Both the position numbers and the translations under genes were made by a program. This document shows, piece after piece, positions 29,013 through 30,451 of a stretch of 64,000 bases of DNA (positions within the stretch are counted from its first letter, which is position 1; each line of letters begins with the position of its first letter). This DNA is from Escherichia coli (GTDB lineage: Bacteria > Pseudomonadota > Gammaproteobacteria > Enterobacterales > Enterobacteriaceae): the NCBI RefSeq assembly GCF_003790525.1, contig NZ_CP033635.1; one strand, given 5' to 3'. The notes below the pieces were generated by a model. It saw only the letters and a program-made list of their open reading frames with translations. It made no database searches and was not told the origin of the DNA.

Positions 29013-30451
29013 ATGTTAGTTAGTAAAAGTAATGGTCATAACGTTAATACAGTTTTGGGTAGTGGAAGTTGTAATGAAAACAATTCTTCCAACCCCATGG
29101 AGCTACTAGCTTATAGTATTATAAATTTAATTTGTAAGGAAGCTGCCTCAGGGATGTATCGCGGTGTTCTTGAAACTTTACAAAAATAATGTCTGAATGT
29201 ATATATCAAGAAGGCAACGCCTTTGTCATTATGGGAGCTGGAGAACAATTAAAACGTATTAAATATGATGTTGATGAAAATAACTTAAAAGTATTCAACG
29301 TACACTTTGATAATAATGAAGAGTTAGTTACTGATGGTGAGCCTGACGTAGTATGTTTAAGCAAGTAGGAGTGGGAAGATCTTCTCATTAAACTAAAGCT
29401 GGAGAACAAAGAAAATGCGGTTTCTGAAACTGACCTGTCATCGAATAAAAATAATGTTGATCAGTTTTTTGAATACCATAAAAGAAATGAATAGAACATT
29501 TTCGATAATATAAGAAAAAGTGATTTTCATGTTGGTTCACTTCAGCCAGGTAGAAGGCGTAGTGTTATTTTAGAAACGCCAACAAATGTCTGTGTGGAAC
29601 CACATAATTTATATGACAACCAAATATATAAAGTTTCACCTGTAACTAAAAACTCTCAGCAAGTTAAAGGCCACTATGGAGATAAATTGAAAGAAATGCA
29701 GATGTTCCTTAACCAGATAAGCAATGCACTTCAACAGGCTCCATCTTTGTCAGAGTCAAAGGAACACACCATAGATATTCAAAAAATAACGGATGCCTTT
29801 GTGAAGGAGTTCCGTGGGATATTATTTGATAAAAATGGAAATTCTTCAGAGCGTTTATTCAATTTTTATGAGTGCTGCTATATATTTTTACCAAGAGCGC
29901 AGCCTCAAGATAAAATCGAAAGCTATAATTCAGCACTGCAAGCTTTTTCCATCTTTCGTTCATCTACTTTGAATAATAATGATGTAGGGTTTAATTTCAA
30001 ATTATTCCCAGAAGTCAAACTGCCTGGGGAAAATCTTGAAACGGTATTCAAATACAAAAAAGGAAGTTTTGTCCGGGAGATAGCCAGAATTAACATTGCT
30101 CTACAAAAAGGAGAGGGTGGTTTATATAATTTAGGTGGGTTGGATTTTAAGGGATGCTTCTTTTCTGGACAGAACTTCAGTAACTATGATATTCAATATG
30201 TGAACTGGGGGACGTCATTGTTTGATCTTGATACTCCATGTATTTTTAATGCGCCTGCTTACAACAAGAGTAATGAAAAATCATTAGAACGCGTCAGCGA
30301 AAACGGTTTAAGTGGAGTCTTGTCTGATCGTAATAAAAAAATAAAACTCATCACGGGCGTGGCACCATTCGATGATATTTTATTTATGGATGATGACTTT
30401 GATGATCCTTCCACTAAGGATGATCCCGTGGAGAATAGTCCCCTTGTATAA
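29013..30451 (+). pseudogene. Decayed pentapeptide-repeat-like gene (ypjC-like position), disrupted by two in-frame TAG codons and a frame change
   Basis: One frame is open from 29189 to 30451 except for in-frame TAG at 29366-29368 and 29492-29494; a 58-aa piece (29013..29189) sits in another frame. The C-terminal 285-aa segment contains pentapeptide-like repeats (LDFKGCFFSGQNFSNYDIQYVNWGTSLFDL). Visibly AT-rich. Confidence 0.55.

Follow-up and report, generated by a model that had tools for sequence, protein, structure and literature searches.

Positions 29013 to 30451 of the window (the whole stretch of 64,000 nucleotides that was analysed) hold what we are highly confident is an allele of ypjCB with three disruptions; ypjCB is an AT-rich gene of the chromosome, confined to E. 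coli/Shigella. The locus, the family name and the pseudogene status are already in RefSeq, where the SMS-3-5 copy of the same allele is marked as a pseudogene with internal stops, and the finding is in that respect a known and ordinary one. The sequence-only reading that this analysis followed up had described a pentapeptide-repeat-like gene inactivated by two amber codons; it missed both the homopolymer deletion behind the small upstream reading frame and the identity of the gene with the well-known K-12 ypjC/ypjB pseudogene.

Identity and surroundings of the locus

When positions 28900-30560 were compared by megablast with 5,426 complete E. coli genomes, the locus was found on the chromosome of 3,079 of them, and 25 complete genomes matched at 99.9% identity. 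The annotation at the 25 best matches reads "ypjCB: YpjCB family protein", or in some records "DUF5507 domain-containing protein". The 420-aa piece encoded by the longer open frame scored 812 bits over model positions 60-460 of NF050179 (Ecoli_YpjCB), a model of 465 positions with a curated cutoff of 650 bits, and the 58-aa piece encoded upstream aligned to model positions 1-58. Pfam gave the two-part architecture of YpjCB, PF17612 (DUF5507) at E 1.5e-51 followed by PF17621 (DUF5508) at E 2.7e-140, with nothing else of note at E<=10. The conceptual product after repair is 479 aa, and the gene and its two regions are placed as follows.

29013..30451, plus strand: ypjCB pseudogene, whole extent (NCBIfam NF050179; PGAP 'ypjCB, internal stop' on the same span of SMS-3-5)
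29189..29491, plus strand: rest of the DUF5507 (YpjC-type) region (PF17612)
29711..30448, plus strand: DUF5508 (YpjB-type) region, the best-conserved part of YpjCB (PF17621; dN/dS 0.47-0.51)

The gene sits in an AT-rich island between tRNA-Ile (ileY) and ssrA, with a GC content of 33-37% across ypjCB compared with ~50% in the flanks, and from this composition it is evidently an acquired gene. Its earlier description as decaying and horizontally acquired agrees with the low GC, the inactivating lesions and the presence of intact alleles elsewhere. The neighbouring features are:

28181..28256, plus strand: tRNA with CAU anticodon (ileY-type tRNA-Ile2), left edge of the island (Rfam; PGAP tRNA-Ile)
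30812..30979, plus strand: Pin-type recombinase remnant (pinH-like), downstream neighbour (PGAP 'recombinase family protein, incomplete' in SMS-3-5, mapped)
31258..35955, plus strand: ypjA/ehaD, gene for an autotransporter adhesin (longest ORF, with the PGAP start mapping to ~31387)
36116..36478, minus strand: ssrA (tmRNA), right edge of the island (Rfam)

An ORF at 30782-31048 covers the recombinase remnant, and the Rfam scan of the window returned the tRNA and the tmRNA only. The order tRNA-Ile, ypjCB, recombinase remnant, ypjA is conserved in the window, SMS-3-5, CE10 and K-12. Taken together, the NF050179 score, the DUF5507/DUF5508 pair, the neighbours and the GC content identify the feature as the K-12 ypjC/ypjB locus, whose two genes NCBI has merged under the name ypjCB. 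K-12 ypjC (b2650) and ypjB (b2649) share with the window copy the location, the neighbours (ileY tRNA, pinH remnant, ypjA), the Pfam families and an amber at codon 161. The two alleles nevertheless differ, being ~89.5% identical at the DNA level, and the K-12 allele has kept Gln119 and a run of six A residues (A6) but carries an in-frame 105-bp deletion that the window copy does not have.

Three further observations concern the surroundings. The ileY-to-ssrA island in the window strain is only ~8 kb, and since ssrA lies ~160 bp past the end of ypjA there is no CP4-57-type prophage at ssrA. A gene for a 750-aa alpha-amylase-family glycosyl hydrolase at 25372-27624 (minus strand; GC 36-40%) is intact in the window, SMS-3-5 and CE10, and the K-12 copy is marked by PGAP as a pseudogene because of an internal stop. 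Just upstream of ypjA, a 39-codon ORF at 31203-31322 corresponds to the hypothetical protein WP_001120794.1 in all four flank-annotated genomes (SMS-3-5, CE10, K-12 and CM2), and could either encode a leader peptide or be an artefact of annotation.

Lesions of the window copy and their history

Direct translation of 29189-30451 gave one frame of 420 codons, closed by the terminal TAA of the ypjCB frame at 30449-30451, with exactly two internal stops, both TAG. This frame, the positions of its two ambers and the existence of a 58-aa piece upstream in another frame had all been given correctly by the sequence-only reading. The lesions and the piece that they separate are:

29013..29189, plus strand: N-terminal 58-codon piece in another frame, its TAA at 29187-29189 overlapping the ATG at 29189
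29182..29186, plus strand: A5 homopolymer, -1 frameshift at codon 58/59 (all other genomes examined have A6)
29366..29368, plus strand: amber 1, codon 119, CAG (Gln) to TAG (88 complete genomes, window-type N-terminal haplotype)
29492..29494, plus strand: amber 2, codon 161, CAG (Gln) to TAG (25 genomes with the window flank, 1,238 with the K-12 flank)

The 58-aa piece is separate because of the loss of 1 bp in an A6 run. Across 28900-30560 (1,661 bases) the missing A is the sole difference between SMS-3-5 and the window; the SMS-3-5 gene (ECSMS35_RS28325, pseudogene, 'internal stop') has both ambers as in the window but retains A6, so that it has no frameshift. All 25 of the other aligned genomes also have A6, and an exact 34-mer containing A5 had no match in the 5,426 complete genomes. 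The frameshift is either a private mutation of the window sequence or a homopolymer or assembly error.

Both ambers are genuine C-to-T transitions in glutamine codons, since 25 independently assembled complete E. coli genomes carry the two together and 88 carry amber 1; they are neither chance occurrences nor sequencing errors. That the stops are sequencing or assembly artefacts in an intact gene is hardly conceivable; the A5/A6 difference, which is located in a homopolymer and was seen in the window sequence only, would fit such an explanation, but the TAG codons are base substitutions and not indels. Even if the frameshift in the A run were an assembly error, the two ambers would still kill the gene.

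The sequence-only reading had expected an intact version in another strain to show what the gene was, and intact YpjCB orthologues are indeed common, with lengths of 479, 484 and 491-492 aa and with Gln at both amber sites (...CLSKQEWEDL... and ...KRNEQNIFDN...). P0001 (479 aa, from a human-gut metagenome), which is 96% identical to the repaired window protein, and WP_000906744.1, the full-length YpjCB of O157:H7, both span the two stop positions and differ from the window in having Gln119, Gln161 and an unbroken frame. The closest intact allele, on a human-gut metagenome contig, has ~98% DNA identity with CAG, CAG and A6 at the three sites, and between alignment columns 210 and 790 it is identical to the window except for two C/T sites. 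Compared with intact orthologues covering all three sites, the window copy thus has premature stops and a frameshift, and no evidence speaks against its being a pseudogene. A ribosome starting at the native ATG (29013) would stop after 58 codons, and no full-length YpjCB would be made from the sequence as read.

All nonsense codons in the window ypjCB are TAG, the stop most easily suppressed in E. coli, and natural read-through could in principle provide a low level of full-length YpjCB. However, CAG to TAG is simply the one-step C-to-T route from Gln, no suppressor tRNA is present in the window, and the yield across two successive ambers and a frameshift would be negligible; we give this explanation next to no credence. 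Dcm deamination hotspots were also considered as the cause of the CAG-to-TAG changes and were rejected, as the contexts are AGCAGG and AACAGA, neither of which is CCWGG (no CCAGG).

The history of the allele was followed in an alignment of the window with 25 genomes picked at even steps down the similarity ranking, in which the ypjCB locus is strongly mosaic. The only N-terminal haplotype with amber 1 was that of the window, and with the amber it is followed by no fewer than three different downstream segments (SMS-3-5, CE10 and L006/L008); ST648 combines this N-terminal haplotype with CAG at the amber 1 site. Amber 1 therefore traces back to one older event, with recombination afterwards. Amber 2 is lacking in CE10, L006 and L008, which have TAG1 on mosaic backgrounds, and would therefore be later than amber 1 in the window lineage. 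We propose that a C-to-T change first made Gln119 (CAG) a TAG on the window N-terminal haplotype, after which the allele would have recombined onto several downstream segments; that a second C-to-T change then made Gln161 a TAG in an SMS-3-5-like sublineage; and that one A was finally lost from the A6 run at codon 58 in the window sequence only, if this last step is a real mutation rather than a homopolymer error.

The codon-161 amber affects the same codon that splits K-12 'ypjC' from 'ypjB'. It is the single lesion of the K-12 allele and gave rise to the historical 160-aa "YpjC" and to "YpjB", and the length of the DUF5507 model is that of the 160-aa K-12 "YpjC". Searches with exact 33-mers placed the K-12-type amber in 1,238 genomes, against 385 for its CAG sibling, and the codon-161 amber is present in at least 1,263 of the 3,079 locus-bearing genomes. 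The two backgrounds that carry it are separated by 42 differences within +/-150 bp, and each has a CAG sibling at 2-3 differing sites. The parsimonious reading of these sequences is that the amber arose independently on two haplotypes. Gene conversion is an unlikely source of the shared codon, since the identical tract around it is only 19 bp amid 42 differences per 300 bp. A third CAG-to-TAG change was seen in strain 2012C-4502 (A3 columns 1286-1288), in a local context, ACAGAAC, similar to that of the codon-161 site (A3 columns 594-596).

It might be argued that YpjCB has been split functionally, so that two products are made and used, a YpjC-like N-terminal fragment and a YpjB-like C-terminal protein with a start of its own. 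This would fit with the occurrence of the Gln161 amber on two haplotypes and at such frequency, with the lack of any further lesion in four of five sampled K-12-type carriers, with the C-terminal domain being the most constrained part of YpjCB, and with the phenotype of a K-12 ypjC deletion (see below). The window has a candidate internal YpjB-like ORF of 285 codons from a GTG at 29594. However, this start is a GTG with no recognisable Shine-Dalgarno sequence upstream on reading of the sequence, and the N-terminal part of the window gene has two more breaks, the frameshift and TAG1. Furthermore, the sampled K-12-type carriers are near-identical, so that the absence of extra lesions may reflect recent ancestry, and other alleles have been hit in the C-terminal half (an amber in L008, a frameshift in CE10, and indels in CM2 and L020). 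A functional split is therefore considered quite unlikely, and the pseudogene reading is preferred.

Deletion of ypjC in K-12 was reported to give a modest increase in colonisation by a pathogenic strain in a mixed biofilm, while constitutive expression of ypjC was without effect and polar effects of the deletion were not excluded (PMC3646849). Because of this phenotype, the truncated products or the transcript might keep some activity in some backgrounds. No papers on DUF5507, DUF5508 or YpjCB were found in the literature, the mentions of ypjC/ypjB consisting of gene lists, an intergenic SNP and the one biofilm screen. Scans for promoters and terminators did no better than shuffles.

The pentapeptide-like stretch and the search for relatives

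Intact YpjCB, at ~480 aa, has a Ser/Asn-rich N-terminus, a conserved C-terminal domain and an acidic tail, and neither a signal peptide nor a membrane segment was seen in its sequence. Two elements near the C-terminus are relevant here:

30125..30229, plus strand: pentapeptide-like stretch YNLGG LDFKG CFFSG QNFSN YDIQY VNWGT SLFDL (residues 372-406; permutation test)
30368..30448, plus strand: acidic C-terminal tail (FDDILFMDDDFDDPSTKDDPVENSPLV), read from the translation and conserved among alleles

The sequence-only reading had reported pentapeptide-like repeats in the C-terminal segment and had likened them to those of secreted effectors such as PipB2/EspX. A short periodicity is present, but it is much weaker than this implied: it consists of a degenerate run of 6-7 pentads, each centred on a hydrophobic residue, which amounts to ~1.5 coils. 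The best six pentads score 15/30 against the [STAV][DN][LF][STR][G] consensus, and since only ~0.2% of shuffles reach this score (P~0.002) the periodicity is not random. A small beta-helical element at this position is possible.

Recognised pentapeptide-repeat domains have eight or more pentads. Proteins of PF00805 (PipB2/EspX, Qnr, MfpA) share with YpjCB the hydrophobic centre and the D/N before it over 6-7 pentads, but the YpjCB run is too short and too degenerate, and neither a profile hit nor detectable homology nor a confident model of a beta-helix goes with it. The HMM search for PF00805 that had been suggested gave no match in YpjCB at E<=10, and the solved pentapeptide-repeat proteins among the PDB sequences likewise gave none at E<=10. 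The PDB sequence search returned chance antibody hits only (E 1.7). AlphaFold models were of low confidence, with a mean pLDDT of 39 for the full length, 54 for the C-terminal domain model (residues 272-432) and 45-59 across the pentad stretch within that model; the Foldseek comparison with the PDB gave TM<=0.25 and E>=0.025, with nothing at E<=0.001 and no repeat protein among the hits. These structural results are taken as uninformative.

No homologue other than YpjCB itself emerged when 1.84 billion representatives at 50% identity were searched exhaustively with HMMER (E<=0.001). Of the 40 hits, one was a full-length cluster and the other 39 were fragments, and none fell below 56% identity with the query; the family is thus an orphan. 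A peptide-pattern scan of ~100,000 species genomes gave one contaminant-looking locus and nothing more. This locus, a 2.8-kb contig (DEQI01000374.1) of the MAG 'Planococcaceae bacterium UBA3370' with a 74%-identical YpjCB, is almost certainly E. coli contamination. No PADLOC defence profile matched YpjCB at E<=1, and the sole match in PHROGs was phrog_30093, an uncharacterised family that is the same protein. Carriage by mobile elements was rejected, as ypjCB occurred in none of the phage records and the four hits in the plasmid collection were three records of 4.8-4.9 Mb, which are E. coli chromosomes filed as plasmids, and a partial match on a 245-kb record.

This sequence evidence gives no support for placing YpjCB in the pentapeptide-repeat or PipB2/EspX families. 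The proposal that intact YpjCB belongs with PipB2/EspX as a type III secretion effector with pentapeptide repeats does draw on the F/I/W-centred pentads, four of them with D/N before the centre and the run as a whole beyond 99.8% of shuffles, and on the low GC and lineage-specific distribution of the gene. The first 30 residues are also Ser/Asn-rich with no acidic residue before position 22, a pattern noted by inspection that may be suggestive. Against this, neither PF00805 nor any other repeat family was matched in Pfam, there is no similarity to the solved repeat proteins and no confident beta-helix or Foldseek repeat-protein hit, and the HMMER library, which is expected to include the EspX/PipB2 families, yielded YpjCB only. 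The gene is, in addition, present in K-12 as an ordinary annotated chromosomal locus. We therefore regard the effector proposal as very improbable and do not retain the link to PipB2/EspX.

As a separate observation, the acidic tail (PFDDILFMDDDFDD...) bears a loose likeness to the acidic-hydrophobic tip of SSB (DFDDDIPF), and may hint at a protein-docking motif, although this is a pure pattern resemblance.

Decay of ypjCB across the species

In the 25 sampled genomes ypjCB is intact in 11, including O157:H7, and a pseudogene in 14. The latter carry at least 10 distinct lesions, which include nonsense changes, 1-bp indels and a ~160-bp deletion. CE10 has a TGG-to-TGA change and a +1 insertion, 1-base deletions are found in ST648, 05-3629, CM2 and ATCC 8739, M11957 has a frameshift and a stop, and the ~160-bp deletion is that of 90-3040. 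Pairwise dN/dS between intact or repaired alleles had a median of 0.65, with 0.79-0.85 for the N-terminal half and 0.47-0.51 for the C-terminal part. The dS between ypjCB alleles was 0.15-0.28, which is very high within the species. These sequence comparisons show ypjCB to be under weak constraint and often lost, and the window copy is probably a relic drifting neutrally.

Since the Gln161 amber arose on two haplotypes and at least 10 distinct lesions are spread over 14 of the 25 genomes, it is conceivable, if unlikely, that YpjCB is an E. coli-specific host- or niche-interaction factor whose loss (as an antivirulence-type or costly gene) or split form has been selected, in place of neutral decay.

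Our preferred reading remains that of a decaying accessory gene. The analysis offers little new biology: it establishes that the stops are genuine, locates the homopolymer frameshift and removes an unsupported effector label. It is also a reminder that DUF5507 and DUF5508 are halves of one protein. The recurrent codon-161 amber, together with the many independent inactivations, is a modest population-genetic curiosity. Being intact in roughly 40-45% of sampled carriers, unusually polymorphic and mosaic, ypjCB provides a clean example for the study of gene loss, and to judge from the population pattern its product would be a dispensable accessory factor, lost repeatedly by E. coli lineages.
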